The notes beneath the pieces are model-generated. The model was not told where the DNA came from. It was given only the letters and a program-made list of their open reading frames with translations, and made no database searches. A stretch of DNA of 64,000 nucleotides from Planctomycetota bacterium (GTDB lineage Bacteria > Planctomycetota > GCA-002687715 > CAIWVZ01), in contig JBGANV010000002.1 in NCBI GenBank assembly GCA_044222185.1, forward strand, positions 1 to 64,000, written 5' to 3'. The translations under genes were made by a program, and so were the position numbers. Each line of letters opens with the position of its first letter. Positions within the stretch are counted from its first letter, which is position 1. Positions 9,685 through 60,591 of the stretch are shown here, one piece after another.

Positions 9685-9934
9685 CCCGCGACGATGGACC
9701 GCCGGGGCCGCGGCGTGACGATCGGCCGTATGCGATCGCGAGGAGGAGGTTCATGCACACTCATGGGGTCCGGTCGCGCGGATGTGACGGGGCTCGTCTC
9801 GAGTTCCGCTCTCAGGCGATCCCGGGCGATTCCGTCGATGAGGAACACGCCTCCGCGTTCGCATCGGTGCCGAGCCCTGACGTTCGAGCCCGATGGAACC
9901 CGAAACCCCACTCGACCGGTGCGTCGGGAGTTGC

Positions 9935-10540: not shown

Positions 10541-11028
10541 GACGGCGCTTTCCCTTCGCGATAGGGCCCGTGCTCGAGGAACGTCTTCAGGATCAGCGTG
10601 GCGGCGGCGCGGTCGACGCGGTCTCGGCGGTCACGCCAATCACTGAAGCGCTCCGAGAGCAACTCTTCGGCTTCGAGCGACGTGTAGCGTTCGTCCACCA
10701 TGAGAACGGGAAGGTTCGACGCGACGTGCAACTCTGCGGCGAACGCACGCGCCGACTTCGCCTGACCCCCTTCGGTGCCGTCCACGTTCAACGGCAGGCC
10801 GACGACGATCACACGGATGGCGTCCTCCCGGCAGCACGCGGTGATCGCCGCGAGATCGGCGGACGTGGTGGTCCGTTGGATCGTCTCGCGCCCGAGCACG
10901 AACCGGCGAGAAGCATCGGTCACCGCCATTCCGATGCGCTTCTTTCCGTGATCGAGCGCCAGAACTGCGCCCGCGCCGGGATCCGAGTCCGCGTTCGCCG
11001 CCGGCGGATTTGGGTCAGAGGATGTCGT
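10537..11028 (-). CDS. ruvX: YqgF/RuvX family nuclease (pre-16S rRNA nuclease / Holliday junction resolvase-like)
   Basis: VLALDHGKKRIGMAVTD, VVGLPLNVDG, VDERYTS, VDRAAATLIL. The start is placed tentatively at ACG 11028, behind AGGAGG. Confidence 0.9.
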   Translation of the reverse strand, partial: TTSSDPNPPAANADSDPGAGAVLALDHGKKRIGMAVTDASRRFVLGRETIQRTTTSADLAAITACCREDAIRVIVVGLPLNVDGTEGGQAKSARAFAAELHVASNLPVLMVDERYTSLEAEELLSERFSDWRDRRDRVDRAAATLILKTFLEHGPYREGKAPS

Positions 11029-12085: not shown

Positions 12086-12131
12086 GGCCGGAATCGTACC
12101 GCGATTGGTGCAAGCTGGAACGGAGTCCGGC

Positions 12132-38100: not shown

Positions 38101-39614
38101 CCACCGACCCCGTCGGTGATCTCGTGAGCCGTTTCGCGCGCACGCATGGGCCGTTTGCCATCGAAACGTGTGCCGCGCGACTGGGCCTCGGCGTGGCCCC
38201 CGTCCGTGCGGCCCTCGAACGCCTGCGCGACGCCGATCGCATGCTCGAAGGCGAGTTCCTTCCCAACGGCCGCTCCCGTGAGTGGTGCGACGTGGGGGTG
38301 CTCCGCACGATCAAACGGCGCTCACTCGCACGGCTGCGCAAGGAGGTGGAGCCCGTCGAGCCCGTGGCTCTGGCCCGTTTCCTCCACGCATGGCACGGGC
38401 TCGACCACGTGCGCCGCGGCGCCGATGCGCTGATCGAGGTGATCGAGCAGTTGCAGGGCGCGGCGCTTCCGTTCTCGACGCTCGAGCGCGACGTCTTCCC
38501 GGCACGCATCGAAGCCTACCGGCCCGCGGACCTGGACCTCCTCTGCGCGACCGGGGCCGTCGTCTGGCGGGGGATCGAGCCACTCGCGCCGTCGGACGGA
38601 CGAATCGCCCTCTTTGCCGCGGACGCCGCCCCGCTCCTGATGCCGCCGCCGGGCGAGGCGGAAGGGCCGCTCGCGAGGAAGATCGTGACGGCGCTCTCCG
38701 ACGGCGGTGCACTCTTCTTCCAGGATCTTCTCGCCCGCGTCGGCGGGTTTGGCGGCGACGTCGTGCGGGCGCTGTGGGATCTCGTCTGGGCCGGGCTCGT
38801 GACGAACGACACGCTCGCGCCGCTGCGAACGGTGCTCGGTGGAACGGTCTCGCGGCATTCGCCCGAGCAGAGGATCCGCGCCCGCTTCCTGCGGGGACGT
38901 CGCACGGGTCCGCCGGGGTCGGAGGGGCGGTGGTCGCTCCTCGTGGCCGGTCGGACCGAGAAACCTCCCTCGGAGACGGAGCGTCGCACGGCGCTCGCGC
39001 GCCAGCTCCTCGTTCGACACGGCGTCCTCACGCGTGAAGCGGTCCAGACGGAGGCCGTCGCCGGCGGATTCTCGTCCGTCTACGGAGTGCTCAAGGCCAT
39101 GGAGGACGCGGGACAGATCCGCCGCGGACGCTTCATCGCCGGACTCGGCGCGACGCAGTTCGCGCTGCCCGGTGCCGACGATCGGTTGCGCCAGGCATCC
39201 TCCGACCCCGACCGGACCTGGGTGATCGCCGCATCCGACCCGGCGAACCCCTACGGCGCCGTCGTACCCTGGCCCGAGCACGGAGAGAGCCGTCCCGAGC
39301 GTCGCGCCGGCGCCCACGTCGTCCTCCGCGACGGTGCGCTCGTCGCATGGATCGGACGCCACGCAACCGACCTCATCACGTTCCTGCCCAAGTTCGAGCC
39401 CGAGACGTCGCGCGCCGCACGTGCGCTGGCCGTCGCGCTGGCGACCTTTGCCGGGAGTCGGTTCGGGCGCGGCACCTCGCTCGCGACGATCGACGGTGGC
39501 TCGGCAGCCACGTCGGTGCTTGCGCCCCACCTGCGGGCCGCCGGCTTCCAAGCCACATCCAGCGGCTGGGTCCTGCGCGCGCAGCCGCGCGCCTCCGAGT
39601 CCGCCGATGCCTGA
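35124..39614 (+). CDS. lhr: Large ATP-dependent helicase Lhr (full length, with C-terminal domain)
   Basis: APTGSGKT, SPLKAL, TTPESL, DEIH, LSAT, HHGS, TSTLELGID, QRIGR, GTIPDRG, GELDEE; about 1500 aa. Confidence 0.95.
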   Translation: MSRAASPLSNFHPAVAEWFHASFPSATPVQTQGWPPIQDGRSSLLLAPTGSGKTLAAFLAAIDKLMFSDEPPKDRRCRVIYVSPLKALAIDVERNLRAPIAGIAAAAARRGDVHRIPQVVIRTGDTPAAERARMRRAPPDILITTPESLFLILTSQAQAMVAAVETVIVDEIHAVVATKRGSHLSLSLERLEQAAERETPLQRIGLSATQRPLEEVARFLGGGTVRGKRGRWTPRPVEIVDAGRKRSVEVTIEVPVDDMGSLGDLVDVPSGPAAAGPKARSIWPSIHPRVLELIRAHRSTMVFVNSRRLAERLAGALNELAGEELVLAHHGSISRERRTEIEDRLKRGDLRGIVATSTLELGIDMGAVDLVIQAEAPPSSASGLQRIGRASHHVTGTPKGIIFPKFRGDLLASAAVARRITRGEVEETIYPRHPLDVLAQQVVAAACVRSWPTEELFDLVRQAAPFAELPRSSFDGVLDMLSGRYPSDEFAELRPRIVWDRVKGTIRARDGAQRVVLANAGTIPDRGLYPVFLSGDDTGKSRRVGELDEEMVFESRAGDVFLLGASSWRIEEIHHDRVLVSPAPGEPGRMPFWIADRPGRPAETGRAIGALTRELAGLSEREGIDRLERDHGCDARAAQNLARYVLEQKEATGEVPSDRAIVVERWRDEMGDWRVCVMTPFGARIHAPWVTAVRTRFEAQEGVTIDVIWSDDGMVFRVPELDAPPDVAALFPAPDEVEDLVMRHLGETALFAARFRENAARALLLPRRHPGRRAALWHQRRRAADLLAVASRFGSFPILLESYRECLRDVFDLPGLTDLMRRVQQRSIRVVPVDVTRPSPFASSLLFTYVGNFVYDRDAPLAERRAQLLTIDQAQLRELLGEEELRELFDATVIDELTAELQRMGSRGARSGDGVCDLLLAIGDLTMDELRQRTLEPESIAAWVEALVAERRAIPVTIAGERRLIAAEDAARYRDVLGCAIPQGLPQAFLVAPTDPVGDLVSRFARTHGPFAIETCAARLGLGVAPVRAALERLRDADRMLEGEFLPNGRSREWCDVGVLRTIKRRSLARLRKEVEPVEPVALARFLHAWHGLDHVRRGADALIEVIEQLQGAALPFSTLERDVFPARIEAYRPADLDLLCATGAVVWRGIEPLAPSDGRIALFAADAAPLLMPPPGEAEGPLARKIVTALSDGGALFFQDLLARVGGFGGDVVRALWDLVWAGLVTNDTLAPLRTVLGGTVSRHSPEQRIRARFLRGRRTGPPGSEGRWSLLVAGRTEKPPSETERRTALARQLLVRHGVLTREAVQTEAVAGGFSSVYGVLKAMEDAGQIRRGRFIAGLGATQFALPGADDRLRQASSDPDRTWVIAASDPANPYGAVVPWPEHGESRPERRAGAHVVLRDGALVAWIGRHATDLITFLPKFEPETSRAARALAVALATFAGSRFGRGTSLATIDGGSAATSVLAPHLRAAGFQATSSGWVLRAQPRASESADA

Positions 39615-40395
39615 GGGCGACACGATCCTCCGCACGGCACGCACGCTCGCACTGGCGCTGAACGACGTCGTCGTGCGCGAGGCGAGAAGTCCGCTACCGG
39701 ACGTCGACGCCGAGAACCTGCGAGGGCGGCGCGTGATCTCGGTAGAGGCACGCGGCAAGAACCTCCTCATCCATTTCGAAGGCGACCTCTGTCTGCATTC
39801 GCACATGAAGATGACGGGGTCGTGGCACGTCTACCGGCCGAACGAACGCTGGCGCAAGCCCGAGCGACTCGCGCGGATCGTCCTGACGACCGATGCCTAC
39901 GTCGCCGTGTGTTTCTCCGCACCCGACGTGCGCCTGATGAGCGAGCAACGGCTCGCGCGCGACCCGGCACTCGCCACTCTCGGGCCTGACGTCCTCGGTA
40001 CGACGTTCTCTCCGGCGGACGCCGTACGCGGGTTGCGTGCCGTCGGCGACCTCCCCATCGGCGAGGCGTTGCTTGCGCAGAGCGCCCTCGCGGGGATCGG
40101 CAACATCTACAAGAGCGAGGCGTTGTTCTCGTGCCGGCTCGACCCATTCGCGAAGGTCGCCGATCTGGACGATCCGGCGCTCGAGCGTCTCGTGAAGTCC
40201 GCACGGCGGCTCATGTCGAAGAACCTCGTAGGAGGCCAGCGGACGACGAGCTCTCACGTGGGTTCCCGCTACTGGGTCTACCGGAGAAGCGGCGAGGCAT
40301 GCCTCGTCTGCGGCGCGATCATCGCCATGCGCCGCCAAGGAGCCCTCCTGCGCTCCACCTACTTCTGTCCGCATTGCCAGCAGCCGGGCGTATGA
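39607..40395 (+). CDS. nei: Fpg/Nei family DNA glycosylase (Nei2-like)
   Basis: N-terminal MPEGDT, ARGKNL, HMKMTGSW, H2TH AGIGNIYKSE, zinc finger CLVC..CPHCQ; overlaps the lhr stop. Confidence 0.93.
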   Translation: MPEGDTILRTARTLALALNDVVVREARSPLPDVDAENLRGRRVISVEARGKNLLIHFEGDLCLHSHMKMTGSWHVYRPNERWRKPERLARIVLTTDAYVAVCFSAPDVRLMSEQRLARDPALATLGPDVLGTTFSPADAVRGLRAVGDLPIGEALLAQSALAGIGNIYKSEALFSCRLDPFAKVADLDDPALERLVKSARRLMSKNLVGGQRTTSSHVGSRYWVYRRSGEACLVCGAIIAMRRQGALLRSTYFCPHCQQPGV

Positions 40396-40405
40396 TCGCG
40401 CACCC

Positions 40406-40816
40406 ATGTTCGAGGTCTTCGATCACACGGCCGACATCGGCCTGCGCGTCCGCGCGCCCGACTTCGCCGCCGTGCTGGCGGAAGCTGCCCGCGGGATGTT
40501 CACGCTCATCGCCGCGGACTTGGGCCCCTATCGAGTGACGGTGGAGGACGACGTGGTGATCGCTGGCCGCGACCGCTCCTTCCTCCTCCTCGATTGGCTC
40601 GACGACCTCCTGTTCCGATTCGAGACGCGGCGGATCGTCTTCGTCAAATTCGACGTGCACGTGACCGACGCGGGAATCACGGCCCGGATCGGCGGCGAGC
40701 CCGTCGACCCGACGCGACACCGTCTGGGGCGCGAGGTCAAGGCCGTGACGTACCACGAGCTGGACGTCCGGGACACGGTCGACGGCGTGGAAGCGACCGT
40801 GATCTTCGACATCTGA
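40406..40816 (+). CDS. Archease
   Basis: FDHTADIG, EAARGM, WLDDLLF, EVKAVTYH, FDI C-terminus. Confidence 0.93.
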   Translation: MFEVFDHTADIGLRVRAPDFAAVLAEAARGMFTLIAADLGPYRVTVEDDVVIAGRDRSFLLLDWLDDLLFRFETRRIVFVKFDVHVTDAGITARIGGEPVDPTRHRLGREVKAVTYHELDVRDTVDGVEATVIFDI

Positions 40817-40826
40817 GGGAACGGTG

Positions 40827-42290
40827 ATGGGCAACGAAGTGTATGACGGACCACTGGAGCAGATCGACGAGTGCGCGTGGCGCATCCCCAAGTCGTATCG
40901 GCCAGGGATGCGCGTCGATGGGATCATCTTCGCGACACGCGAACTCCTCGAGCAGGTCCGCAAGGATCAGGCGCCCCAGCAGGTCGTGAACGTGGCGCAC
41001 CTCCCGGGCATCCAAGTGGCGAGCTACGCCATGCCCGACATCCACTGGGGATACGGGTTCCCCATCGGCGGAGTGTGCGCCACCGACCCCGATGAAGGCG
41101 GGGTCGTGTCGCCCGGAGGTGTGGGATACGACATCAACTGCGGCGTTCGGCTCCTGCGGACGAACATCCAGCACGAGGAGCTGAAGCCGTTCATGTCGCG
41201 TCTCGTCGAACGGATGCACGCCGAGATTCCCACGGGGGTCGGCAAGGGTGGGAAGTACGCGTTCGACGGGACGAAGCTGCGCGCGATGATGTCGGAGGGA
41301 TTGCCGTTTCTCCGCGACCGCGGCCTCGCGACGGAACGGGACGTCGAGCTGACGGAGGCAGGTGGGCGGATCCCTGGCGCCGAGCCGGGGTCGGTCTCCG
41401 AGCGCGCGCTCGATCGGGGATTCGACCAGTGCGGCACCGTTGGATCCGGCAACCATTTCGTCGAGATCCAGGTCGTCGATCGGATCGAGGATCGGAAAGT
41501 CGCCACGGTTTTCGGGCTCGAGGTCGGGCAGATCTGCGTGCTCGTGCACTCGGGGTCGCGCGGGCTGGGTTATCAGGTCTGCGACGACGCGCTCCGCGAC
41601 CTGCGCGACGTTCCGAAGAAGTACGGCATCGAGCTGCCCGATCGCCAGCTCGCCTGCGCTCCCGTGAAGAGCCCGGAGGGTCAGAAGTACCTGGGCGCCA
41701 TGCGCGCCGCGGCCAACTTCGCGTTCTGCAACCGACAGCTTCTCGGCTGGCAGGTTCGCGAAGTGTTCGCCCACGTCCTCGGAAAACCGTGGCAGCAACT
41801 GGGACTGGACGTGCTCTACGACGTCGCGCACAACATCGCGAAGTTCGAGGAGCACGCCGTCGGCAGGAAGCACAAGACGCTCTGCGTCCATCGCAAGGGT
41901 GCGACGCGCGCGTTTCCGCCGGGACACGCCGAGGTGCCCGAGTGCTACCGGGCCGTGGGCCAGCCCGTGATCATCCCTGGCGACATGGGTCGTGCGTCGT
42001 GGATCCTCGCAGGCCAGCAGGGCTCGATGGAGCGGAGCTTCGGGACGACGTGTCACGGTGCGGGCCGGCAGATGAGTCGCACGGCGGCCACGCGGTCCGC
42101 TCGAGGCCGGGACATCGCGGACGAGTTGTTGGCGCGCGGCGTCATCGCCTGCGCCAGCAGCCGCGACGGTCTCGCCGAGGAGCAGCCCGACGCCTACAAG
42201 AACGTGGACGACGTCGTCGAAGTCGTGCACCGCGCGGGTCTGTCGCGGCGCGTGGCTCGGTTGCGGCCGCTGGGAGTGATCAAGGGCTGA
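40827..42290 (+). CDS. rtcB: RNA 3'-phosphate/5'-OH ligase RtcB
   Basis: MPDIHWGYGFPIGG, GYDINCG, GSGNHF, HSGSRG, HN, HRKGAT, PGDMG, HGAGR, YK, IKG. Confidence 0.97.
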   Translation: MGNEVYDGPLEQIDECAWRIPKSYRPGMRVDGIIFATRELLEQVRKDQAPQQVVNVAHLPGIQVASYAMPDIHWGYGFPIGGVCATDPDEGGVVSPGGVGYDINCGVRLLRTNIQHEELKPFMSRLVERMHAEIPTGVGKGGKYAFDGTKLRAMMSEGLPFLRDRGLATERDVELTEAGGRIPGAEPGSVSERALDRGFDQCGTVGSGNHFVEIQVVDRIEDRKVATVFGLEVGQICVLVHSGSRGLGYQVCDDALRDLRDVPKKYGIELPDRQLACAPVKSPEGQKYLGAMRAAANFAFCNRQLLGWQVREVFAHVLGKPWQQLGLDVLYDVAHNIAKFEEHAVGRKHKTLCVHRKGATRAFPPGHAEVPECYRAVGQPVIIPGDMGRASWILAGQQGSMERSFGTTCHGAGRQMSRTAATRSARGRDIADELLARGVIACASSRDGLAEEQPDAYKNVDDVVEVVHRAGLSRRVARLRPLGVIKG

Positions 42291-42376
42291 CGTCGCGGGC
42301 TCGGCGACCTGGCCCGCGCCGCGTACACTGAGGCCTCGTCCGACCGTCAGCGTGCGGTCCGACTCGGAGCCCACAC

Positions 42377-43165
42377 ATGCGGAAGCCGTCGATCGTCGCG
42401 TTCGCGCTCGTTCTCGTCGCCCTGGCGTGGCTTGCTTGCACCACGGCGCCCTACACGGGCCGCAAGCAGCTCGTGCTCCTGACGGAATCGCAGGAGACGC
42501 AGATGGGGCTCGAGGCCTATCAGGAGGTCAAGTCCACGTCGAAGCTGTCGCGGAACGCGGCGTGGGCGGACATGGTCAAGCGTGTCGGGGCGCGCATCCA
42601 GGCCGTGGCGGATCGGCCCGACTTCCAGTGGGAGTTCAACCTGATCGAGGACAAGACCGTGAACGCCTTCTGCCTGCCGGGCGGCAAGGTGGCGTTCTAC
42701 GAGGGCATCATGCCTGTGTGCGCGACGGACGCGGGCGTGGCGGTCGTGATGGGGCACGAGGTCGGCCACGCGATCGCCCGCCACGGCGGGGAGCGGGTCT
42801 CGCAACAGATGCTGACGCAGGGAGGCACGGAGATCGTGAGCGCGATCCTGGGTCGCAAGGACCCTGCGCTCGCGGATCAGGCGGCCGGCATCCTCGGTGT
42901 GGGCGCGAAGGTCGGGGTTCTCCTCCCCTTCAGCCGTGCCCACGAGAGCGAGGCGGATCACATCGGGTTGATCCTCATGTCCAAGGCGGGCTACGACCCG
43001 CACGAAGCTCCCAAGTTCTGGCAACGCATGCTGACCGCAACGGGAAGCGGCGACCGTCCGCCCGAGTTCCTCTCCACTCACCCCGAGCCGGACACGCGCA
43101 TCAAGCAGCTGAACGACTGGATGCCCGAAGCGATGAAGCACTACACCGGCCCCGCCCTCAAATAA
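42377..43165 (+). CDS. M48 family metallopeptidase lipoprotein
   Basis: Lipobox WLAC, NAFCLPGGK, HEVGH, ESEAD, STHP. Confidence 0.95.
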   Translation: MRKPSIVAFALVLVALAWLACTTAPYTGRKQLVLLTESQETQMGLEAYQEVKSTSKLSRNAAWADMVKRVGARIQAVADRPDFQWEFNLIEDKTVNAFCLPGGKVAFYEGIMPVCATDAGVAVVMGHEVGHAIARHGGERVSQQMLTQGGTEIVSAILGRKDPALADQAAGILGVGAKVGVLLPFSRAHESEADHIGLILMSKAGYDPHEAPKFWQRMLTATGSGDRPPEFLSTHPEPDTRIKQLNDWMPEAMKHYTGPALK

Positions 43166-49395: not shown

Positions 49396-51672
49396 TCACC
49401 CTTCCGGCAGGTCGATCGTCGACGTCCACGTCTTGACCTCCGGGACCGCCGCAAGTTCCTCGTCATCCAGAACCATCACGCCGGGCAATTGGCCCGAGAT
49501 GATGGTTTGGATCTGGCGGCGCATCGATTCGTCGCGCACCAGGATGACCGGCATCCCGGCCGCGTGCTGATGACGTGGCATGTCCTTCGGTGACGCCGAC
49601 GTGGCGATGTAGGTCCCCAGGTGATTACACGGCTTGATGAACGCCCGGATGGCGTCGCGGACCAATGCGTTGTGGCCCCCACCGAGGCGGTTCAGGAGCG
49701 TGTGCTCGAGGCGGTACGCGTTCAGCGCGCCCGTCGGACCGACGTATCGCGAGAGCATGACGGGGAGCAGCTCACGTCGCACGATGGAGTAGGTCTTCTC
49801 GGCATCGCGCGCTTCGCGATTGGCGCCCTCGCGGCGGAACCTGGCGCGCAGGAACGCCTCGAGAATGCGCCCGCGATTGGCTTCCGTGAGAAAGATCTGG
49901 TCCCGCAGGCACATGCGAAGAACCTCGGTCGCCTCCGCCACGCCGGCAGCCTGCGCCGACGCCAGTGCGTCGAGCAACGCCCGGCCGAATTCCGGGAAGT
50001 CCGCTGCGGCGCGCCGCAGGAAGCCGTAGGCCTGCTCCGAATCCAACAGGTCGGCCGCACGCAGCGTCAGCGCGGATTCCAGATGGTCCAGGAGCACCTG
50101 GACCGGTGAGCGCACGAAACTCCCAGCAGGGTGCCCGCCGATCGGGTATGCCGCGGCCTCTCCCCAGGTCCCCGGTAGGGGCGCCGTCTCGGCAATCGCA
50201 TCGGCGAGCAAGGCGGCCGGGTCAGGGATTCGAGCAGCGAGGGAGCGATCCAACCGGATCGATCCGCGCGAGATGACGCCTCCGTTCAGCTCGATCACGT
50301 AGCTCGATCGTCCGGCCACCTGCGGAAACGCACGCTTCTCGATCCCGATCCGCTGGACCGGGAACCCGAGTTTTTCGCGCAAGTCCCGCCAGAGCACGGC
50401 GACCTGAAGCTCCGGACCGGCGATGTCAGGCCCATAGAACTGCAGGATCGTCTCTGGGAATTCGATCTTGTCGGGCGTGAGATCCCGGAACGCTCCGACG
50501 AGCATCAGGTGCAGCTCTGGTGGGACGACGAGCTTGATCGGCGTCGGCGCCGATTGCGGCTTGCGCGGCGTCGTGGCCGCAGCCTTCCCGACGGCCCCCG
50601 CCGGAGCTTCCGCGGTGGCGACCTGCCGACGCAGGGTGCGGAATCGATGAACGGAGAACCCGATGGCCATGGCTCCGAGAGCGGCGAACGGCACTGGGGG
50701 GAATCCCGTCACGGAGCTCGTGAGCGCGACCATCGTGAGAACGATTCCGACGAACATGACGGCGATGGGCTGATCGATGATCTGCCGCTTGATGTCGAAG
50801 GCTGCATTGCTGCTCGCGTCCTCGGTGGCGCGGACGCGCGTGACGAGCGCCGCAGCCGAGGCGGAGATGAGCAACGAGGGAACCTGGCTGACGAGCCCAT
50901 CGCCGATCGTGAGCAGCGTGTATTGGCGTGCCGCCTGGCCGATCGAGAGGCCCCCCTCGGAGACCCCGATCACGAGGCCTCCGATCACGTTCACCGCCGC
51001 GATGACGATTCCTGCGATCGCGTCGCCCTTGATGAACTTCATGGCACCTTCGAGGGCTCCGAAGAGACGGGCTTCCGCGCTGAGTTCGAAGCGGCGCGAC
51101 TTGGCTTCCGCTTCGGCCTTCTTGTCGGATGCACTCCGGGCCGTTTGAAGATCGGCTTCGATCGCCTGCTGCTTGAATGGCATGCCATCGAGGAAGAACC
51201 GGGCGGACGCGTCGGACGCGCGCTCGGCACCCTTCGAGATCACGATGAACTGGATCACGAGGAGCACGAGGAAGACGACCGTGCCCACGATGAAGTTGCC
51301 GCCGACGACGAACTCGCCGAACGTGGCGATGATCTCGCCGGCCCTGCCCTCGCCGAGGATCAACCGGGTCGTGGCGACGTTCAGGCCCAGGCGGAGCAGG
51401 GTCGTAAGCAGCACGAGTGTCGGGAGCGACGAGAACCGCGCCGCCTCGGACACCTGCGTCGCGACGACGAGGATCGTCAGCGACGCCGCCAGGTTGACCG
51501 CGATCAGGTAATCGATCATGCCGACCGGGATCGGCAGGACGAGCGCGATCAGGATGATCAGGACGAGGATCGGGAGCGCGGCCTCGCTTCCGAGCGCGAG
51601 GAACCGATCCACGGACTTGCGGAGACTCCCCTTCGCGCCCGGGGTGCTTGCCACTGAGACGGATCGAGACAT
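49396..51672 (-). CDS. Type III export-gate protein of the FHIPEP family (SctV/FlhA-like), divergent
   Basis: FSSLPTLVLLTTLLRLGLNVATTRLIL, GEFVVGGN, VISKGAER..ARFFLDGMPFKQ..GAMKFIKGDAIAG, TIGDGLVSQVPSLLIS; large cytoplasmic domain. Confidence 0.93.
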   Translation of the reverse strand: MSRSVSVASTPGAKGSLRKSVDRFLALGSEAALPILVLIILIALVLPIPVGMIDYLIAVNLAASLTILVVATQVSEAARFSSLPTLVLLTTLLRLGLNVATTRLILGEGRAGEIIATFGEFVVGGNFIVGTVVFLVLLVIQFIVISKGAERASDASARFFLDGMPFKQQAIEADLQTARSASDKKAEAEAKSRRFELSAEARLFGALEGAMKFIKGDAIAGIVIAAVNVIGGLVIGVSEGGLSIGQAARQYTLLTIGDGLVSQVPSLLISASAAALVTRVRATEDASSNAAFDIKRQIIDQPIAVMFVGIVLTMVALTSSVTGFPPVPFAALGAMAIGFSVHRFRTLRRQVATAEAPAGAVGKAAATTPRKPQSAPTPIKLVVPPELHLMLVGAFRDLTPDKIEFPETILQFYGPDIAGPELQVAVLWRDLREKLGFPVQRIGIEKRAFPQVAGRSSYVIELNGGVISRGSIRLDRSLAARIPDPAALLADAIAETAPLPGTWGEAAAYPIGGHPAGSFVRSPVQVLLDHLESALTLRAADLLDSEQAYGFLRRAAADFPEFGRALLDALASAQAAGVAEATEVLRMCLRDQIFLTEANRGRILEAFLRARFRREGANREARDAEKTYSIVRRELLPVMLSRYVGPTGALNAYRLEHTLLNRLGGGHNALVRDAIRAFIKPCNHLGTYIATSASPKDMPRHQHAAGMPVILVRDESMRRQIQTIISGQLPGVMVLDDEELAAVPEVKTWTSTIDLPEG

Positions 51673-51797: not shown

Positions 51798-51857
51798 AGG
51801 GATGAGGCCCCGTCCCGGCCGGCGCGAACCATGCGCCGACGCCGACGGGAATACACC

Positions 51858-53408
51858 ATGGATCATTCCGACGCAGAAACGTGCCCGCCGTCACCGACGG
51901 TCGACTCGGGCGCCCCTCCTGGTCCTCTGTCCGCGCCAACACAACTGGCTCTGGATCAGTGCGCGAAAGCGACGCGGGGAGCCGTCCTCGTTCAAACGGA
52001 AGGGGCGAACCGGGGTCGCCGGATCGCTCTGACTCCGGGCGAGCACACGATCGGGCGGGCCACGTGCCATTCGATTCCGGTGGACCCAAATGTCGATCGC
52101 GCAGTGTCGTCCCGCCACGCTCGCCTCCTTTCGAGCGGCGATGCCTGGTGGATCGAAGACCTGGGATCCACGAACGGAACGCTGGTCGACGGAGTGCCGC
52201 TTCAGGGTGGCGCACACACCTTGCACCCCGGTGCGCGAATCGAGGTCGGCCGCTCGGTGGGAGGCGACGTCGCTGGCACCGTGGCGTTCACCTTCGAATT
52301 GGAAGGCGAAGTCGCCCAGGACGGGTTCCGTGCGGTGGACGCGCATCATTCCGCATCCGGTTCGGCGTCGGCACCGTACGCAGACGTGGGCATGGGTGTC
52401 GACGTTCCGCCGCCCCCCGCCATGGGCGTCGCGCCGTCGCCGCGACGGCCACGGTTCGCCGATCTCCGTCACGCCGTCGAAAAAGGCCTCGGCCGGATCG
52501 TCTCACTGCCGGCTCGCATCCGCATCGAGGGTCAGATTCGCGATGCGCGGGAGCGGCTGGCCCAATTGGCGCCTCAGGCTCAACCAGCCCTCGGGGCGCT
52601 GGGAGCAGCGCTTGCAATCGAGGCTCCGGACGCGGTGCGACGAACGCCCCAGGCCGGGGAGCTCCAGCGATGCTGCGACGAGGCCGCGACTCGGCGCGTC
52701 GCCCAGGATCAGCTCACCCGCGATCGCGCGGAAATCGCCGAGAAACATGCAGAGGAAATGGCGGGCCATGAGCTCGCGATCAACGAGGCGGAGGCCGTCG
52801 CCGAGGTCGCGCGACGCGCGTTCGCTGCGGCACGCACCGAAGCGTCGCGGGATGAACAGGCGGTGCGGACGTACCTCCGCGAAGTGCAGCCAGCGTTCGA
52901 CGCCGCCGCGGCTGGACTCCGGGAAGCGGCCGCGGTGGCCGGAGGCGCTCCGATCCCCGACGACCTCAACCAACGCCTGGCGGCGTTGAATGCTCACCTG
53001 TCGGTCTGCGAGCCCGCCGCGCGGCGACTCGGCGAGGCTCTGGTCGTGCCGGAGGCCGCAAGACTCGCTTCGCGCCGTACGGCCGACACGGCCGCCGCGG
53101 CGCTGCACGGCGCGGAACAACGTGTGCGCGAACGACGCGACCTCGCATCCGCGACGCGCGCGAGGCATGACGCCAGCATCCAGGCGTTGGAGACTCGCGA
53201 GACGGCGGCACGTCAGGCCCTCGACGCGATGGCGTCGCGGACAGCTGAGGTCCACGCCGAGCTCGGCCGCACCGTGTTCCGCCAACGCATCGCCGCGGCG
53301 CTCGGACTTCCGGCCTTCGAGGGTGCCAGAGCCGCGCATGCCGCTCTCGTCGAGCAGGAAGATCTGATCGACAAACTCACGGCCGAGCTCCGGGCACATG
53401 GGGGGTGA
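51858..53408 (+). CDS. FHA-domain protein with long Ala-rich coiled coil
   Basis: TIGR..VSSRHA..EDLGSTNGT (intact pThr-binding motifs), Pro-rich linker, helical C-terminal half. Confidence 0.88.
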   Translation: MDHSDAETCPPSPTVDSGAPPGPLSAPTQLALDQCAKATRGAVLVQTEGANRGRRIALTPGEHTIGRATCHSIPVDPNVDRAVSSRHARLLSSGDAWWIEDLGSTNGTLVDGVPLQGGAHTLHPGARIEVGRSVGGDVAGTVAFTFELEGEVAQDGFRAVDAHHSASGSASAPYADVGMGVDVPPPPAMGVAPSPRRPRFADLRHAVEKGLGRIVSLPARIRIEGQIRDARERLAQLAPQAQPALGALGAALAIEAPDAVRRTPQAGELQRCCDEAATRRVAQDQLTRDRAEIAEKHAEEMAGHELAINEAEAVAEVARRAFAAARTEASRDEQAVRTYLREVQPAFDAAAAGLREAAAVAGGAPIPDDLNQRLAALNAHLSVCEPAARRLGEALVVPEAARLASRRTADTAAAALHGAEQRVRERRDLASATRARHDASIQALETRETAARQALDAMASRTAEVHAELGRTVFRQRIAAALGLPAFEGARAAHAALVEQEDLIDKLTAELRAHGG

Positions 53409-53504: not shown

Positions 53505-53583
53505 TTGTGAATCAGAACGAAACCGTCCGCCACGCATACGGAGCGGTCGGTTGCTGAACCTCACTTCCATTTGGAGTAATTCG

Positions 53584-54195
53584 ATGAAGACCGGTCTCCT
53601 GGTGCGATTGACGGTGGCGGCGCTTGCGGTTCTTGGCACGCAGATCGTCGGTGGCTGCGTCTCGACGGAATACACTCAGACGCAGCAGGACGCGAGCACG
53701 GCAACGCCGATCGCCGGCGTTCAGGGTGTCGCAGTCATCGTCGAGTCGACGCCGTACAGCAACCAATTTGGACAAATAGCGCAAACCGAAGTCGAGGCCG
53801 CAATGAAGTCTCGTGGGTTCCGCGTGATGAACCAGAAGGCCATCAAGGACGCACTCGAGCACTTCAAGCTCCAGGAATCGGATCTCACGACGACGACCGG
53901 CCGAGCCCAGATCGGGGAGTTCATGAACGTCCAGGCCTTCGTCTACGTCGCGGTCACGGAGGCCTCGAACTTCCAGGAAACCGGTACCTGGCCCTTCCGT
54001 ATCGACCCGCCGATCCCGTCGGTAAGCGCATCGATTTCGATCAAGCTCACGAGCCAGGGGCAGGTCGAGAACCTCTGGGTCGACACGATCCGGAAGAAGT
54101 CTCAGGGCTCCGACCTCTCACGCCACGTCCAGATCACTGCCGATCAGCTGATGCGCGAGCGCTTCCCGTACCGCGCCGGCCCCGCCGCGGGCTGA
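53584..54195 (+). CDS. Lipoprotein with a CsgG/HfaB/FlgO-like domain
   Basis: Signal ending VGGC; VAVIV..EVEAAMKSRGFRVMNQKAIKDALEHFKLQES..AQIGEFMNVQAFVY pattern. Confidence 0.65.
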   Translation: MKTGLLVRLTVAALAVLGTQIVGGCVSTEYTQTQQDASTATPIAGVQGVAVIVESTPYSNQFGQIAQTEVEAAMKSRGFRVMNQKAIKDALEHFKLQESDLTTTTGRAQIGEFMNVQAFVYVAVTEASNFQETGTWPFRIDPPIPSVSASISIKLTSQGQVENLWVDTIRKKSQGSDLSRHVQITADQLMRERFPYRAGPAAG

Positions 54196-54304
54196 GATCA
54201 GGCGGGAACAGATCGCGCAACGATCGTCCCAATCGACGCCGAAACAGGCCCACCCTCGATGTGATCGACGGTGGGCCTCGTCATCTCCGCGACGTGCTAC
54301 CGCC

Positions 54305-54332
54305 CGCAACGCCCCACCGCCCCGAACGATCA
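54305..54332 (+). promoter_or_regulatory. ECF-type promoter for the MIIA-domain gene
   Basis: CGCAAC-N16-CGATCA. Confidence 0.78.
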
Positions 54333-54403
54333 ATCAGCATGCACCGGGAACGACCCGGGCGAGGCGGCGCCAATCGTGGATGCCGCGAGTCGAGGAGATC
54401 GCC

Positions 54404-55750
54404 ATGACGAACGTGAATCAGGTCAGCAGCGTCCGACGGCACGACATCGGTTTCCACCCCAAGCCCACGAGCCAACTGCAGGTCGGTGCAGGAACGATCG
54501 ACACGGGTCGATACCTGATCGAGATCCTGGGCCCTGGCGACGTGCGCGTGACGGATCGCACGAACAACACGAACTTCCGTGCCTGGGGTGATCCGCACAT
54601 CACGACCGGTGACAACGACCGTGCCCACTTCGAGGATGGACCGTTGACCATCGTCCTCCAGGACGGCACGCAGCTCACCTACGTGCCGACGGCGAAGGAC
54701 GCGAACGGGGTCGCGTGGCTCGACAAGCTCGCCGTCAAGCGGGGCAACGAAGCCGTGTGTGTCACGGACATCAAGACCGCTCCGAAGGTCGGTCAGGTCG
54801 GCCGCAACGCAGCCATGATCGACGGCTGCTTCGACCACGGCACTGTCATGTACGCTGGCGACCAGGTCGATGACCTGTTCTTCCAGGTTGACGGTCAGGA
54901 GCTGGTCGGCACCGATCCGCGCGGCGGTCAGTTCGGCGGCGAATGGGACCTGGATGGCCGCGGCGGAACGGCACCAACCTTCACGACTTCACCGATCCGC
55001 GGCACACCGTCGTTCCCGAACGACCCGGGCCGCCCGTGCGTTCTCCCACCGGCACCGCCGGCGATCTGGAACATGATCGAGAAGGGCCTCGCGGAACTCC
55101 TCCAGGGCGGACAGAACCCATTCGGCCACATGGACCCGCTGCGCGGGCTCGGCGCCCTTCTCATCCGCCAGTTGCTCCAGCAGTTCTGGTCGAACCTGGG
55201 CGGCGACGTGCCGTTCAAGCCGATCGGACCGCCGCAGAACGGCGGCTGCTTCGGACGCCCGGTTCATGCGCTGCGAGACTCTGCCTCGACCCCCGCGAAC
55301 GGCCAGGCGCCGGCGAATCTCGGAACGACGGGCTCCGTCGGGTCGAAGGGCAACTCGGTCGGCGGCAGCTCGGCCGGTGGGACCTCCGCGGCGGATGGCG
55401 TCACGTCGAACAACCGGGTCTACGGCGGAAAGTACTCGAGCAACGTCGACATCTTCACGCTCATCGCCATGATCCTTCACGACATGCAGGCCGACCTGGC
55501 GACCAAGGCGCAGGAACTCGCGAGCGTCTCGAACGAGATCAACACGCTCCGGGGCCAGTCGCCCCAGGGCGGCCAGCAGGCCGGCGGCGACACCACTCAG
55601 ATGTCGAACCTCGAGTCGAAGCGCAGCCAGCTCCTCTTCGAGATCGAGCAGCTCAAGCAGAAGATCACGGAGATGTCGGATCTGCGATCGAACATGTCGA
55701 AGACCGATCACGAGACCGCCATGACGATGATCCGGAACGTCGGGAACTGA
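54404..55750 (+). CDS. DUF1521/MIIA-like autocleavage-domain protein with a needle(SctF)-like C-terminal helix; candidate type III substrate
   Basis: GAGGAG SD; no signal peptide; RAWGDPH..LQDGTQLT; G/S/T-rich linker; C-terminus LLFEIEQLKQKITEMSDLRSNMSKTDHETAMTMIRNVGN. Confidence 0.8.
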   Translation: MTNVNQVSSVRRHDIGFHPKPTSQLQVGAGTIDTGRYLIEILGPGDVRVTDRTNNTNFRAWGDPHITTGDNDRAHFEDGPLTIVLQDGTQLTYVPTAKDANGVAWLDKLAVKRGNEAVCVTDIKTAPKVGQVGRNAAMIDGCFDHGTVMYAGDQVDDLFFQVDGQELVGTDPRGGQFGGEWDLDGRGGTAPTFTTSPIRGTPSFPNDPGRPCVLPPAPPAIWNMIEKGLAELLQGGQNPFGHMDPLRGLGALLIRQLLQQFWSNLGGDVPFKPIGPPQNGGCFGRPVHALRDSASTPANGQAPANLGTTGSVGSKGNSVGGSSAGGTSAADGVTSNNRVYGGKYSSNVDIFTLIAMILHDMQADLATKAQELASVSNEINTLRGQSPQGGQQAGGDTTQMSNLESKRSQLLFEIEQLKQKITEMSDLRSNMSKTDHETAMTMIRNVGN

Positions 55751-55985: not shown

Positions 55986-57221
55986 ATGAGTTTCGGATTG
56001 GGAAGCCTGACCAAGGGGATACGGGACGTCGCGAAGGATGCCGTGGAATCAGTCGCTGGGAAAGCGGTCGACGCCGTGAAGGGAGTCGCGAAGGACGCGG
56101 CCAAGACGGTGGTGAAAGGCGGCCTCGCCTACGTCACCGGCGGCGCGTCGCTCCTCTTCGACAAGCAGATCGACAAAGCCATCGACAAGGGGATCGACAA
56201 GCTCGCCGATCGAGGCGAGAAGTACCTCGACCGCGCGGCCGACAAGCTGTTCGACGACGTCGAGGGACAGTTCGTGAAGCGGTCGAACGGTTCTGGCACC
56301 TCGGCTGACCTGCCATCGAACGATGAGCTGCGCCAGTCGTTCGTGGGCGACGTGCGAGGACTCATCGCGCCCCAGACTGGGGGCGCCGGCGTCGCGAAGA
56401 ACATCAACCCCGCCGCGGCAGCGTTCGTCGACGCGATCAAGCCGGCGGATGGAAAGAACATCAGCGAGGAACAGCTCTTCGCACTCGGCGCGTTCATCCG
56501 CACGGCCGCGCTCGCCGGACCCGCGGCGGCCCAGAAGTTCCTGGAGCAGTTCGCGGCACAGGCGTCGAAGCTCGGCGCAGGTGGCGGATCGGTGCCCGTC
56601 GAGAAGGCTACGGTCGCCGCGCTGCAGGACATGGTGAAGTCCGGCGCACTCCCGGCGGAACAGGCGGACAGGATCTACTCCGAAGCCTTCGCCGGCGCTC
56701 AGCTCGATCGCGACGCGTCGCAACTGTTCGACGGGACTGGCGGACCCAACGACCCGACGCAAGCCACGGCCCCGCTCGAGCAGGGACTGGGGAGCCTCTT
56801 CGATCGCCTGAACGGGTTCGGCAATGGGCAATCCGCAGCGCCACGCAAGCTCGCCGAGGCCAGGCCGGACGCGCGGCCGACGACCGCTCCCGGCGGCTCG
56901 GCGCCGGGATCGCGGGGCGGCATTCGCGTCGACGGTCCCCAGGGTTTCCTGTTCAAGCCGGTCTCCGACAGCGACGGGAAGCTCGTGGTGCTCCTCCCGA
57001 AGAAGTTCAGCGGAAAGGTGAAGAGCCTCGTCATCCGCGACTCGACGGGGAAGGTGATCGACAAGGGCCGTGCAACCGGTATCGGCAACGGCGATCGCGA
57101 GCACTTCCGCTTCAAGAAGGCGGGTGCGAGCTATCCCCCGAACGTCACCGTCGAGGTCACGCTCGAAGACGGAACGACGAAGAGCTGGCCCATCGGCGAC
57201 CCCTCGCAGCGCTACGACTGA
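55986..57221 (+). CDS. Hypothetical protein: amphipathic helical N-terminus, helical core, small beta C-terminal domain
   Basis: Purine-rich SD region, typical codon usage, no signal peptide; repeats such as DKAIDKGIDKLAD. Confidence 0.85.
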   Translation: MSFGLGSLTKGIRDVAKDAVESVAGKAVDAVKGVAKDAAKTVVKGGLAYVTGGASLLFDKQIDKAIDKGIDKLADRGEKYLDRAADKLFDDVEGQFVKRSNGSGTSADLPSNDELRQSFVGDVRGLIAPQTGGAGVAKNINPAAAAFVDAIKPADGKNISEEQLFALGAFIRTAALAGPAAAQKFLEQFAAQASKLGAGGGSVPVEKATVAALQDMVKSGALPAEQADRIYSEAFAGAQLDRDASQLFDGTGGPNDPTQATAPLEQGLGSLFDRLNGFGNGQSAAPRKLAEARPDARPTTAPGGSAPGSRGGIRVDGPQGFLFKPVSDSDGKLVVLLPKKFSGKVKSLVIRDSTGKVIDKGRATGIGNGDREHFRFKKAGASYPPNVTVEVTLEDGTTKSWPIGDPSQRYD

Positions 57222-57366: not shown

Positions 57367-60300
57367 ATGACCTGGGATCAAAACACAGACTCCATCCTCG
57401 TCCGAGTCCCCGAAGCCAACGGATACAAGGTCCTCGAGGACTGCATCCTGTACTCACGCATCGGTGAGGGCGGATTCGGCGCCGTCTACCAGGCGTTCCA
57501 CATGCGCATGGAGATGGACGTCGCCGTCAAATGCATGAAGCCGCAACTCGACGCGGGCCCCGCCCTCCGGGCCGAGCTGCAGAAGCGCTTCGTTCGCGAG
57601 GCGCAATTCGGAGCCCGGATCACCCATCAGAACCTGGTGGGAATCAAGGACGTCCGGACCGCTCACGACGTCGACTACATCGTGATGGAGTACATCCGCG
57701 GCGAGAACGCCGAGCAGCGTCTCCGCCGCAAGCGCGTGCTCTCGGTCCCTGAAGTCACGTCGATCGTCCGGTTCGCTGCGCTCGGCCTCGCGGAAGTCCA
57801 CAGCCGGACGAGCGAAGACGGAGAGCCGTGCGCTCATCGCGACGTCAAACCCCAGAACATCATGGTGGCGACGACGGGACGCGTGAAGATCCTCGATCTG
57901 GGACTCGTGCGCTCGCGCCAGGCCAACTCGAGTCATACGTCCTTGGGAATGGGCGCCGCCGGCACACCGCCTTACATGCCACCGGAGCAGTTCGACAGCT
58001 TCGCATCGGCCGGTCCAGCGGCCGACGTCTGGGCCCTGGGCGCGACGCTGTACTCGCTCCTGACCGGCGAGGCGCCGTTCCGCGGCAGCGAACACGAGAT
58101 CAGGAAGGCCGTCACCACCGGGGCCTTCCCCGACGTGGCGGCGAAGCGTGCGGATGTCCCTGCGGCACTTCGCGCCATCATCGAACGATGCACGCGAAAA
58201 GATCCGTCGGAGCGGTTCCGGACGGCCGCCGAGTTCGCGGTCGCTCTCGACCCGTTCGCCACGCTTCAGGAGGCTGACCTGGCAGATCAGAATGCCGGAC
58301 GCGACGGTGATCCGTCGCCGTTGGGCCGACCGTCAGCGGAGACGGTGGCATCCATCCAGCACGAGATCGGTGCCGCACACACGCCGCCATTCCCCGCGAC
58401 GTTCCCGCCGACGGTGCCGCCACCGCCCCATCGATCGCCCGTCGCCCGCGCAGCCGCGATCCTCTGCGTGATCCTCTCAGCGGTCGGCGGTTACCTGTGG
58501 CTTGCGGCCGACGAGGGGTGGCCACCGTTCCGGCCGTCGCCATCGCCGAACCCGCATCCAGGCCCGACGCCGGTCGTCGAGAAGTCGTTCCGAACCGTGG
58601 CGATGAAAGACCTGTGCGACGTCTCGATCGGCCAGGCGGACGGTACGCGCAGCGGGCCGGAGAGCCGACCGATGCAGCGCTTCGCGGCGCTCGAGGCTCC
58701 CAGCCTGCCGCCCTTCACTGCCGAGCAGGTCGTGGTGAACGTCAAACGTCACCGTGCTGCGACGCGGATCTCCGTGACCGTTGGATTGAACCGCGCTCAG
58801 CTGACGCCGAACCCAAAACCCGACCACGACGAGTACACGGTCGACATCCCCGTGGGGACGACGAGCCTCCACCTGGAGGCCGTCTTCGATGATCCAACGG
58901 AGCATCTCGACGCCTCGGCAACGCTATCGCTCACTCGGGAACGAGCGACGGTCCCGTTCGACACGCTCGCGCGAATCGAGTGGCGGTGCGAGCCAGGCGC
59001 GGCGTACGGCGCACCACCCGCAACGACGACGGCGGAGTCACTCGACGTCCGTATCGTCCCCGCAAGCCCCGCGGCCGATCTGACGCACGTGACGCTGGAA
59101 TGCGCTGGCACGCCGATCCCGCTCGATGCTCTGGCTGCCGGTACGTCCGAGGCTCGCATCCCGCTTGGCGCTGCCGGAAGGAAGACGGTCACATGCTTCG
59201 TGTCGACCGCGACGAAGGAGGCGACATCCACCGTCGTGATCGAGCGCTCCGAGCCCGAGCGTCGCCCCGCCGCGCCGATCGCCTTGGCGCCGAAGACTCC
59301 GTTGAAGTCGAATGCGGACTCGTGCGAGGTCCTGCTCGAGGGGCCCCCTGAGAAAACGGTCGTGACCCTCGTGACGCTACGTGGGCGAACGACGGTGAAA
59401 ACGCCCATGTCGGAACCGTTCGACCGGACACGCGTCCAGTTGTCCTGCCGCGTGAGCGGGCAGACGCCCATGGTTCTCGACGACAAGGCCGCCCGCTCCA
59501 CGCTCGCGCTCGCTCAAGCCGATTCGGCATTGTCGACGAGTGCCGACGTGGAGGTCGTCGCGAACTGGCACGACGTCCCCCTCGCCCACATGACGGCAAC
59601 CATTCACGTGGATCGTCAGCCACCGACGTTCCAGTTCCGGGAGTGGGAAGACATCGACGGCCTGAAACTGGCGATGTCCTATCTCGAGGGAAATCCGCGA
59701 CTCACGGCGCGCCTTCACGTCTCCGAGCCGATCGAGGTCGTCGATCCACCCTCCGACTCGACGATCGCCCTGGTCAACCCGACGACGATCCAGGTCGGGA
59801 CTCCGCTCCTGCCGTCAGGAGCGTCAGTGTCGGTATCGGTGCGCGACGCGGCTGGAAACGAGGCCCGGTTCGATCGCACCTTCGAAGACGCACTCGCCTA
59901 CGCACGCAAGCGCCTGCCGCTCGGCGATGATCCGGCCAAGGGTCGGCGGTTCCTCGTCCTGCCGTTCTTGCCCGAGAAGCCAGCGAAGCAGTCCATCGAA
60001 CGCCGCGCATTCGCGCCGGTCTTCGATCCGAACGCGGTGAAGGGCGAGTACGAAGCGGATCGCATCACGACCGAGTGTCGTGACGAAGTGGTCCGGCGGC
60101 TGCGCGAACTCGTGCCGAACGTGGAGCTCATCGACAACCGTGAGGTCGACTCGATCCTGGGCGTCATCGACCCGCCAAGCCCCGGGGTGATCAATGCGGC
60201 CGCCCTGAATGGCAGCTTCGACCATGGGGTCGCAGCCCGACTCGCGGTGATCCTCCGGGCAGACGGCTGGATCCAGGGATCGTTCAAGCTCCTGACGGAT

Positions 60301-60591
60301 GGCGCACCGGAGAACGTGAGCTACCGCGTCGACGCGCAACTCACCCTCACCCTGTACGCCGTGAACGCGGACGGGACCGCCACCGAGCGTGGCCGCGTCG
60401 ACCTGCGAGCCAAGGGGGCCACGAGCAATCAAAATCGCCGCGACATCGTCGACGTCGTCCGGCCGGAGGCCGTTCGAAATGCTCTGCAAGTCATGATCGG
60501 CAAATATATTAGGAAGCTCGACACCGCCGAGCTTCCGCCGCTCCATCTGACGGATTTTCCAAGGACTCTCGGAGACGCCACGAAGCGATGA
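57367..60591 (+). CDS. Transmembrane Ser/Thr kinase with extracytoplasmic Ig-like segments and a C-terminal CsgG/FlgO-like domain
   Basis: GEGGFG, VAVK, HRDVKPQN, DLG, GTPPYMPPEQ; TM AAILCVILSAVGGYLW; VDRQPP..VRDAAGN; FLVLPF..ELIDNREVDSIL..LRADGWIQGS. Confidence 0.9.
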   Translation: MTWDQNTDSILVRVPEANGYKVLEDCILYSRIGEGGFGAVYQAFHMRMEMDVAVKCMKPQLDAGPALRAELQKRFVREAQFGARITHQNLVGIKDVRTAHDVDYIVMEYIRGENAEQRLRRKRVLSVPEVTSIVRFAALGLAEVHSRTSEDGEPCAHRDVKPQNIMVATTGRVKILDLGLVRSRQANSSHTSLGMGAAGTPPYMPPEQFDSFASAGPAADVWALGATLYSLLTGEAPFRGSEHEIRKAVTTGAFPDVAAKRADVPAALRAIIERCTRKDPSERFRTAAEFAVALDPFATLQEADLADQNAGRDGDPSPLGRPSAETVASIQHEIGAAHTPPFPATFPPTVPPPPHRSPVARAAAILCVILSAVGGYLWLAADEGWPPFRPSPSPNPHPGPTPVVEKSFRTVAMKDLCDVSIGQADGTRSGPESRPMQRFAALEAPSLPPFTAEQVVVNVKRHRAATRISVTVGLNRAQLTPNPKPDHDEYTVDIPVGTTSLHLEAVFDDPTEHLDASATLSLTRERATVPFDTLARIEWRCEPGAAYGAPPATTTAESLDVRIVPASPAADLTHVTLECAGTPIPLDALAAGTSEARIPLGAAGRKTVTCFVSTATKEATSTVVIERSEPERRPAAPIALAPKTPLKSNADSCEVLLEGPPEKTVVTLVTLRGRTTVKTPMSEPFDRTRVQLSCRVSGQTPMVLDDKAARSTLALAQADSALSTSADVEVVANWHDVPLAHMTATIHVDRQPPTFQFREWEDIDGLKLAMSYLEGNPRLTARLHVSEPIEVVDPPSDSTIALVNPTTIQVGTPLLPSGASVSVSVRDAAGNEARFDRTFEDALAYARKRLPLGDDPAKGRRFLVLPFLPEKPAKQSIERRAFAPVFDPNAVKGEYEADRITTECRDEVVRRLRELVPNVELIDNREVDSILGVIDPPSPGVINAAALNGSFDHGVAARLAVILRADGWIQGSFKLLTDGAPENVSYRVDAQLTLTLYAVNADGTATERGRVDLRAKGATSNQNRRDIVDVVRPEAVRNALQVMIGKYIRKLDTAELPPLHLTDFPRTLGDATKR

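Follow-up and report, generated by a model that had tools for sequence, protein, structure and literature searches.

What is the role of a presumed calcium-dependent, self-cleaving domain in a protein that ends like the needle subunit of type III secretion systems (T3SS)? This question is raised by an open reading frame (ORF) at positions 54404-55750 (+) of a 64,000-nucleotide stretch of DNA from a Planctomycetota bacterium (GenBank assembly GCA_044222185.1, contig JBGANV010000002.1, positions 1 to 64,000), hereafter called the window. The encoded protein, P0001, combines an N-terminal MIIA/DUF1521 domain, a long linker and a predicted C-terminal helical hairpin. To our knowledge, MIIA/DUF1521 proteins are known only as secreted effectors of unclear purpose, and needle subunits only as small stand-alone proteins. 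Both the domain and the helix family of P0001 are known; their combination is new and conserved, and the fusion suggests a needle-attached or needle-chaperoned protein of a previously undescribed kind. No description of a needle-like tail on a DUF1521/MIIA protein was found in the available parts of the literature, most subscription journals and supplements lying outside the search; nor was any planctomycete needle, or any T3SS of this kind in Planctomycetota or Phycisphaerae, found in a search that again lay outside most subscription journals.

Results

Architecture of P0001

The ORF is a real, well-supported gene. It encodes 448 amino acids, the stop codon being included in its coordinates, within a stop-to-stop frame of 54152-55750 (+). 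A Shine-Dalgarno-like AGGAG (54392-54396, +) stands 6-7 nucleotides (nt) before the ATG at 54404, and the guanine-plus-cytosine content by codon position is coding-like (about 0.8-0.94 at third and about 0.45-0.55 at second positions).

The N-terminal beta domain occupies residues 22-190 (54467-54973, +), as delimited by Pfam PF07481, a structural model and an alignment. A preliminary description of this DNA, made from its letters, had placed WGDPH at residues 61-65 of a DUF1521-like beta domain, with GDPH (G62-H65) at 54587-54598 (+), and sequence, Pfam and AlphaFold2 agree on this point. The Pfam match (residues 29-125, E 4.5e-5) is a marginal pass, with 24.0 bits against a curated cut-off of 23.6, and reaches 25.4 bits in a genome-level search; it is backed by PF07481 in all eight homologues from a word-indexed search and by the invariance of GDPH in 22 of 22 relatives aligned from genome contigs. 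The residue preceding GDPH varies among relatives (W, H, Y, S), and the full W61-G62-D63-P64-H65 motif is invariant in a nine-row alignment. With that alignment AlphaFold2 predicts the beta domain at residues 22-170, with a predicted local distance difference test (pLDDT) of 75-92; folded alone with the 22 relatives, the domain has a mean pLDDT of 87.5 and a predicted template modelling score of 0.85. It is acidic, with a net charge of -11 over residues 22-195. Foldseek returned nothing at E <= 0.001 with either the whole model or the domain model. A wide fold search with the domain model gave weak matches, among which about 14 of 50 rows were VWD-domain proteins, including MUC2/5B/5AC, VWF, FCGBP, RGMB, vitellogenin and Cypridina luciferase; self-cleavage at GD|PH is otherwise known from the VWD fold.

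The chemistry presumed for the motif comes from VIC_001052. According to the available portion of the study of this protein, its MIIA domain is largely disordered without metal and folds when two Ca2+ ions are bound; the folded domain cleaves itself C-terminal of the GDPH Asp, an Asp-to-Ala change blocks cleavage, and either Ca2+ or Mn2+ induces folding and autocleavage (PMC6506597). The corresponding bond in P0001, D63|P64, is the presumed cleavage site. It had been proposed that P0001 sheds the calcium-triggered domain, and this proposal needs revision: since the scissile bond lies near the N-terminal edge of the domain, a cut between residues 63 and 64 would free residues 1-63 only and leave most of the domain on the hairpin fragment. 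That cleavage might be followed by covalent coupling is pure speculation. Ahead of the domain, residues 1-21 (54404-54466, +) are predicted to be disordered (pLDDT 30-34) and may contain the type III export signal region.

The long low-complexity linker and terminal helix of the preliminary description are both recovered in the model. The linker comprises residues 191-347 (54974-55444, +), is rich in G/S/P/A/T/N/Q (a fraction of 0.62 over residues 196-347) and has a pLDDT mostly below 50; AlphaFold2 assigns low confidence to residues 169-347 except for two short predicted helices. In homologues the linker is much shorter or absent. It is followed by a predicted hairpin, whose first helix (residues 350-384; 55451-55555, +; pLDDT 75-86) corresponds to a helix-sized block conserved in homologues, and whose second helix (residues 397-447; 55592-55744, +) is SctF-like by BLASTP to the small protein P0010 and by hhalign to SctF, and includes the segment SNMSKTDHETAMTMIRN (residues 429-445). 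The loop between them is a 12-residue G/Q-rich stretch with no PxxP turn; among 15 homologues, the turn contains Pro in 10 and Asp-Pro in 7. Of the expected needle-like C-terminus, the hairpin and the SctF-like last helix were thus recovered by prediction and profile comparison, and an SctF-like first helix was not. A wide fold search with the whole model was filled by generic helical hairpins and could not separate a needle from a translocator or another coiled coil.

Relationship of the last helix to SctF

A profile of the last helix was made from a 19-row alignment of 45 C-terminal residues (P0001, seven small proteins and eleven fusions) and compared with five annotated needle proteins retrieved with a tool: MxiH, AscF, YscF, one from a Providencia plasmid and one, PrgI-like, from a Salmonella plasmid. 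hhalign aligned the two sets with a probability of 75.4%, a P of 2.4e-5 and a score of 26.1, over 41 columns free of gaps. Query positions 4-44 fall on MxiH 43-83, so that both proteins end together, and the available part of a solid-state nuclear magnetic resonance study assigns the C-terminal helix of MxiH to Q45-R83 (PMC3605151). With the columns of the SctF alignment shuffled 200 times, the observed score was never reached (mean 8.06, standard deviation 1.66, maximum 13.6), and the reversed-alignment control scored 6.7. Judged by profile comparison, the last helix of P0001 and the C-terminal helix that lines the lumen in SctF are homologous, and the PrgI-like register that had been noticed by eye holds. 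Taken widely, the SctF family includes this helix; P0001 itself stands outside PF09392 as that family is defined.

The family to which the helix belongs is large. Against 1.84 billion representatives, the profile matched 2785 clusters, most of them unnamed, at E <= 1e-3; for 43 the E is 1e-10 or lower. Among the best 150 of these 2785 matches, which include P0001 itself and P0002, DUF1521 is present in nine, EF-hand domains in two and Pfam T3SS_needle_F in four (best E 8e-6); at this level of sequence comparison, the helix family grades into T3SS_needle_F. For the remaining 148, the helix lies within five residues of the C-terminus in 143, and 122 are 230 amino acids or less in length, 65 of these with at least eight Gly in the 44 residues before the helix. 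The same helix also ends P0064 (572 amino acids, with a T4 gp19-like tail-tube domain) and P0084 (371 amino acids, with a PKD domain). Searches of the PDB by sequence and profile, with P0001 and its alignments, gave no E below 0.05; the top profile match, 7y6c_F (E 0.28), a 43-residue chain of a needle/co-chaperone entry, and MxiH (E 0.81) are leads only. An NCBIfam search returned coiled-coil noise only.

A second helix bearer in the sctF slot

The T3SS island spans 49.4-82.2 kilobases (kb) of the contig of the window (C6), and continues beyond the end of the window at 64 kb into the stretch C6:64-82 kb, here locus L031. A hidden Markov model (HMM) of the helix, run over the six frames of the genome, found two bearers only: P0001 (3.8e-19) and the frame C6:80066-80740 (1.1e-17), which holds P0010. 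The next match, the flagellin of the genome, is not significant (E 0.37). P0010 (C6:80066-80347, equal to L031:16066-16347, -) has 94 amino acids; its N-terminal half is Gly-rich, its last helix is SctF-like by the helix HMM and BLASTP, and AGGAG stands 7 nt before its ATG. It lies about 25 kb downstream of P0001, which it matches by BLASTP at 1e-8 with 20/53 identities, and it matches the fused family in hhalign at 93.7%. P0010 falls in no Pfam family, T3SS_needle_F included. A word-based homologue search returned P0010 alone, although the full-library profile scan did find relatives, which form a large environmental family without a name.

The genes surrounding P0010 indicate its place in the system. 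A minus-strand run on C6, beyond the window, contains sctU, sctT, sctS, sctR, a FliO-like gene, an SctO/FliJ-like gene, sctN and sctL (FliH), then a 307-amino-acid gene, sctJ, an SctI-like gene (a weak match to PF17001, E 0.042), a 140-amino-acid gene, a 163-amino-acid tetratricopeptide repeat (TPR)-like gene, P0010, a 101-amino-acid gene and a TPR lipoprotein. The order orf101-P0010-TPR163-orf140-SctI-like-SctJ-orf307-SctL-SctN mirrors ascE-F-G-H-I-J-K-L of an annotated Aeromonas plasmid, and a phmmer comparison with 12 references ranks AscG first for TPR163 (E 0.0062) and AscI first for the SctI-like protein (E 0.0027). On this gene order and these matches, P0010 is assigned to the sctF slot. 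P0001 lies outside that slot and beside sctV, which is 2.7 kb upstream of it. Besides the FliO-like gene before sctR, the island encodes three proteins with FHA/YscD-cytoplasmic domains. A flagellar-type set of FlhA, FlhB, FliP and FliF is found on another contig, C7, whose sctV-type copy has 30% identity to the sctV of the window. An uncontrolled complex prediction for TPR163 with residues 390-448 of P0001 scored 0.01 against a mark of 0.34 and counts neither way on chaperone binding.

Conservation of the fusion

We compared 22 related loci from genome contigs. The closest DUF1521 relatives of the source genome are in metagenome-assembled genomes of Planctomycetota/Phycisphaerae. Twelve fused ORFs with the terminal helix occur in 11 of the loci, every one of which bears a Planctomycetota or Phycisphaerae label apart from a small contig labelled Pontixanthobacter; one locus, L009, is a contig of 4.5 kb. 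The helix HMM found no match in the frames of seven Bradyrhizobium loci (L014-L020) or of four other loci with an Alphaproteobacteria or Pseudomonadota label. In 8 of the 11 fusion loci sctV lies 0.2-3.6 kb from the fused gene; the DUF1521-hairpin fusion is conserved and sctV-linked in related genomes. The small P0010-like form and the fused form are both present in all five related genomes searched, where the P0010-like proteins keep as neighbours the TPR lipoprotein, TPR163, orf140 or SctJ. An even sample of the phylum had the helix in 8 of 301 genomes, the source genome included, and in none of three sampled genomes of the same family, so that its distribution is patchy. A complete Phycisphaerales chromosome (L008) has tandem DUF1521-hairpin genes at 9689-10795 and 11039-12217, with no sctV within 10 kb; CHGDPH and YGDPH replace WGDPH in their products, which have Pro-rich N-terminal extensions.

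Neighbouring genes and RNA-library contigs

Within the window, the island begins with sctV (49396-51672, -; likely start 51672), identified by Pfam FHIPEP at E 3.6e-136 as part of a non-flagellar T3SS. The plus-strand run that contains P0001 opens with an FHA/YscD-cytoplasmic-domain protein (51831-53408, +; Pfam FHA 1.2e-14, Yop-YscD_cpl 1.3e-10). Directly upstream of P0001 is a putative lipoprotein of 214 amino acids (53551-54195, +), with a Cys after a hydrophobic N-terminus and no Pfam family; it was considered as part of the conserved module and rejected, because tblastn gave no match in related loci. The 411-amino-acid protein directly downstream (55986-57221, +), of no known family in Pfam, is conserved beside DUF1521 genes elsewhere and neighbours the fused gene in three loci (tblastn 9e-43 in L006, 4e-35 in L003 and 6e-29 in L013). 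Over about its last 100 residues it is 59% identical to what is encoded next to the L003 and L013 DUF1521 genes, and the match in L006 extends over 265 residues. It is followed by the ORF of a Ser/Thr protein kinase with a long C-terminal extension (57367-60591, +), and kinase homologues stand beside relatives too. Further upstream, at 40232-43165 and 35124-39614, are ordinary genes: archease adjoining the RNA ligase RtcB, an M48 peptidase and a 1496-amino-acid Lhr-type helicase.

Contigs from four sludge metatranscriptome libraries together fall on this region. Two libraries have identical short contigs over 54492-54863, the 5' half of the P0001 gene, and three have short contigs without differences at 53542-54141, on the upstream lipoprotein gene. 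DNA carry-over is possible, and these contigs are a weak hint only of P0001 expression; the lack of contigs over the remainder of the gene carries no meaning.

Discussion

The reading we favour, at a little under an even chance, is that P0001 is an accessory protein of the needle-subunit family, exported by the T3SS and docked on the needle through its hairpin, with the MIIA domain outside, where Ca2+ would fold and cleave it. P0001 would leave the cell unfolded through the T3SS, as suggested by the predicted disorder of its N-terminal 21 residues and by the disorder of MIIA without Ca2+. The hairpin would join or cap the structure built from the small subunit P0010, taking the position of a subunit on it or at its end. 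Its C-terminal helix would face inward, leaving the linker and the MIIA passenger outside, as is the N-terminus of MxiH/PrgI. External Ca2+ would then fold the domain and lead to cleavage between D63 and P64, removing residues 1-63, while the rest of the domain would remain tethered by the linker of about 150 residues. The cleaved domain might then act in adhesion, in sensing or by reacting with a target. According to the available part of PMC3605151, MxiH/PrgI subunits have their N-terminus on the outer face of the needle and line its lumen with conserved C-terminal residues, which makes display outside the needle topologically plausible. The monomeric crystal form of MxiH lacked the last five residues (PMC3605151).

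Several observations weigh against this accessory-subunit reading. Attachment of P0001 to a needle, or polymerisation into one, is putative, and the likeness to SctF is limited to the last helix: the first hairpin helix has no detectable sequence likeness to the SctF N-helix, and a global hhalign of the whole hairpin against SctF gave a probability of 15.6% with the first helix unsupported. Pfam T3SS_needle_F (PF09392) has no match to P0001 at E <= 1 and none above its cut-off in this genome of 93.8% completeness, where its best E, 1.56, falls at an unrelated site. The helix HMM scores single needle proteins weakly, with MxiH at 7.5 bits (E 0.0012) and AscF at E 0.014, within noise, and a spurious short match to AcrG (E 0.0014) is on a par with MxiH; for this reason the weight is placed on the profile-profile comparison, controlled by shuffling. 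No secretin gene was found on contig C6, and nine are elsewhere in the genome, so that the external needle or appendage of this system is putative. The additions tolerated at the needle N-terminus are of 3-8 residues in the available part of PMC3605151, against about 350 in P0001. Finally, the characterised DUF1521 proteins NopE1, NopE2 and VIC_001052 are secreted effectors, not structural proteins, in the available part of PMC6506597.

The same proteins, all of which are treated as T3SS-secreted effectors in that portion of the study (PMC6506597), lend support to an alternative that we regard as unlikely, yet as a serious competitor: P0001 would be a soluble, secreted or injected NopE-like effector, whose SctF-like helix mimics a needle subunit and builds nothing. 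The helix could be held by needle co-chaperones (the SctE/SctG-like orf101 and TPR163) or sorted with early substrates at the export gate, which would also account for the position of the P0001 gene next to sctV. In the PscE-PscF-PscG and YscE-YscF-YscG structures, a chaperone grips the C-terminal helix of the needle subunit. Canonical needle genes are flanked by co-chaperone genes (ascE-ascF-ascG; yscE-sctF-yscG), the island encodes a TPR-like protein with AscG as best match, and in 8 of 11 loci the linkage of the fused gene is with sctV instead of the needle operon; the confinement of the SctF likeness to the last helix also fits an effector. Such a role leaves less well explained that homologues keep the whole hairpin, its first helix comparable in length to that of needle subunits and its turn short, with Pro/Asp, and that the helix ends the protein to within five residues in 143 of 148 best matches, as a filament subunit requires. 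Moreover, the chaperone-binding regions of effectors are usually N-terminal. The effector and accessory-needle readings are compatible, because real needle subunits do both.

It is improbable, in our view, that P0001 is instead the main filament subunit, a helical core bearing outer domains like flagellin or EspA, and that P0010 is a rod or adaptor protein. P0001 has the full helix-loop-helix in its predicted structure, P0010 has one helix only, behind a Gly-rich segment, and the separate SctI-like gene is a weak match. However, P0010 and not the fused gene holds the sctF slot, and its family is far commoner, given that 122 of 148 best matches have 230 amino acids or less. Five of the eight positive genomes of the phylum sample have a single helix match, in frames of 112-717 amino acids (the helix match alone was scored), and from these the fusion may be an optional extra; the two tandem fused genes of L008, away from any sctV within 10 kb, also sit poorly with a main filament. 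A chance or generic coiled-coil likeness, which would make P0001 an ordinary DUF1521 protein whose helical tail is unrelated, is in keeping with the PDB profile searches lacking any E below 0.05 and with the silence of T3SS_needle_F. We nevertheless consider it highly improbable, given the failure of all 200 shuffles to reach the hhalign score and the low score of the reversed control, the presence in the genome of exactly one other helix bearer, located in the sctF slot, the four of the best 150 matches that reach T3SS_needle_F, and the extreme C-terminal position of the helix in 143 of 148.

The accessory-subunit reading can be extended to a broader one, which we consider rather unlikely when taken as a whole: the SctF C-terminal hairpin would be a modular anchor that brings varied passengers onto the exterior of type III appendages. 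The passengers seen are DUF1521/MIIA, PKD, EF-hand and T4 gp19-like tail-tube domains, in a family that would be large and mostly unannotated. Here, a Ca2+-activated, self-cleaving and possibly VWD-like domain would decorate the appendage or cap it, in a system with a Gly-rich single-helix needle subunit and without a secretin of its own. If this were true, the T3SS of the island would be a form near the secretin-less ancestor proposed by Abby and Rocha, who, in the available part of their paper, discuss Myxococcales systems lacking both secretin and SctF (PMC3459982). The 2012 survey of these authors, as available, confined non-flagellar T3SS to Chlamydiae, Proteobacteria and Verrucomicrobia, and for Planctomycetes it listed nothing but flagella (PMC3459982). 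The island documents a non-flagellar T3SS in Planctomycetota, and its divergent needle subunit, its FliO-like gene and its lack of a secretin bear on the origin of the injectisome from flagella. The profile matches (2785 clusters) also indicate a needle-subunit family much wider than the Pfam model. As for the self-cleaving domain, the conserved fusion points to a possible role on a secretion appendage, at its tip or surface, in a change triggered by Ca2+.

Comparison with known systems

NopE1 and NopE2 of Bradyrhizobium and VIC_001052 of Vibrio coralliilyticus have the same Pfam domain and invariant GDPH as P0001, and each of these proteins is encoded within a T3SS cluster or next to one. The Bradyrhizobium relatives share 35-38% identity with P0001 over the DUF1521 domain; unlike P0001, they and the other alphaproteobacterial loci are without the needle-like helix. 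P0001 also differs from the NopE type in having a single DUF1521 domain, a long linker and a hairpin, with a Pfam score barely over the cut-off.

With SctF proteins (MxiH, PrgI-like, YscF, AscF), P0001 shares a C-terminal helix that ends the protein, in the register S/T-N-x-x-K-x-x-x-D ... R/Q-N-hydrophobic-R, a helix-loop-helix (predicted in P0001) and a gene in a T3SS island. It differs from them in length (448 against 76-87 amino acids), in its N-terminal helix, in the absence of a PxxP turn and of a PF09392 match, and in a gene outside the sctF slot.

Flagellin and the EspA-type T3SS filaments carry exposed domains on a polymerising helical core, and the idea of such a core with a displayed domain is common to them and to P0001. 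The exposed domains of flagellin are inserted between its N- and C-terminal helices, whereas in P0001 the whole passenger precedes the hairpin. In the available part of their work, Abby and Rocha report that the profiles of SctF and FliC/FlgL are similar (PMC3459982). The VWD domains of FCGBP, MUC2, MUC5AC and RGM present the same Asp-Pro GD|PH motif in a beta-sandwich, as described in the available parts of PMC10880436 and PMC8267560.

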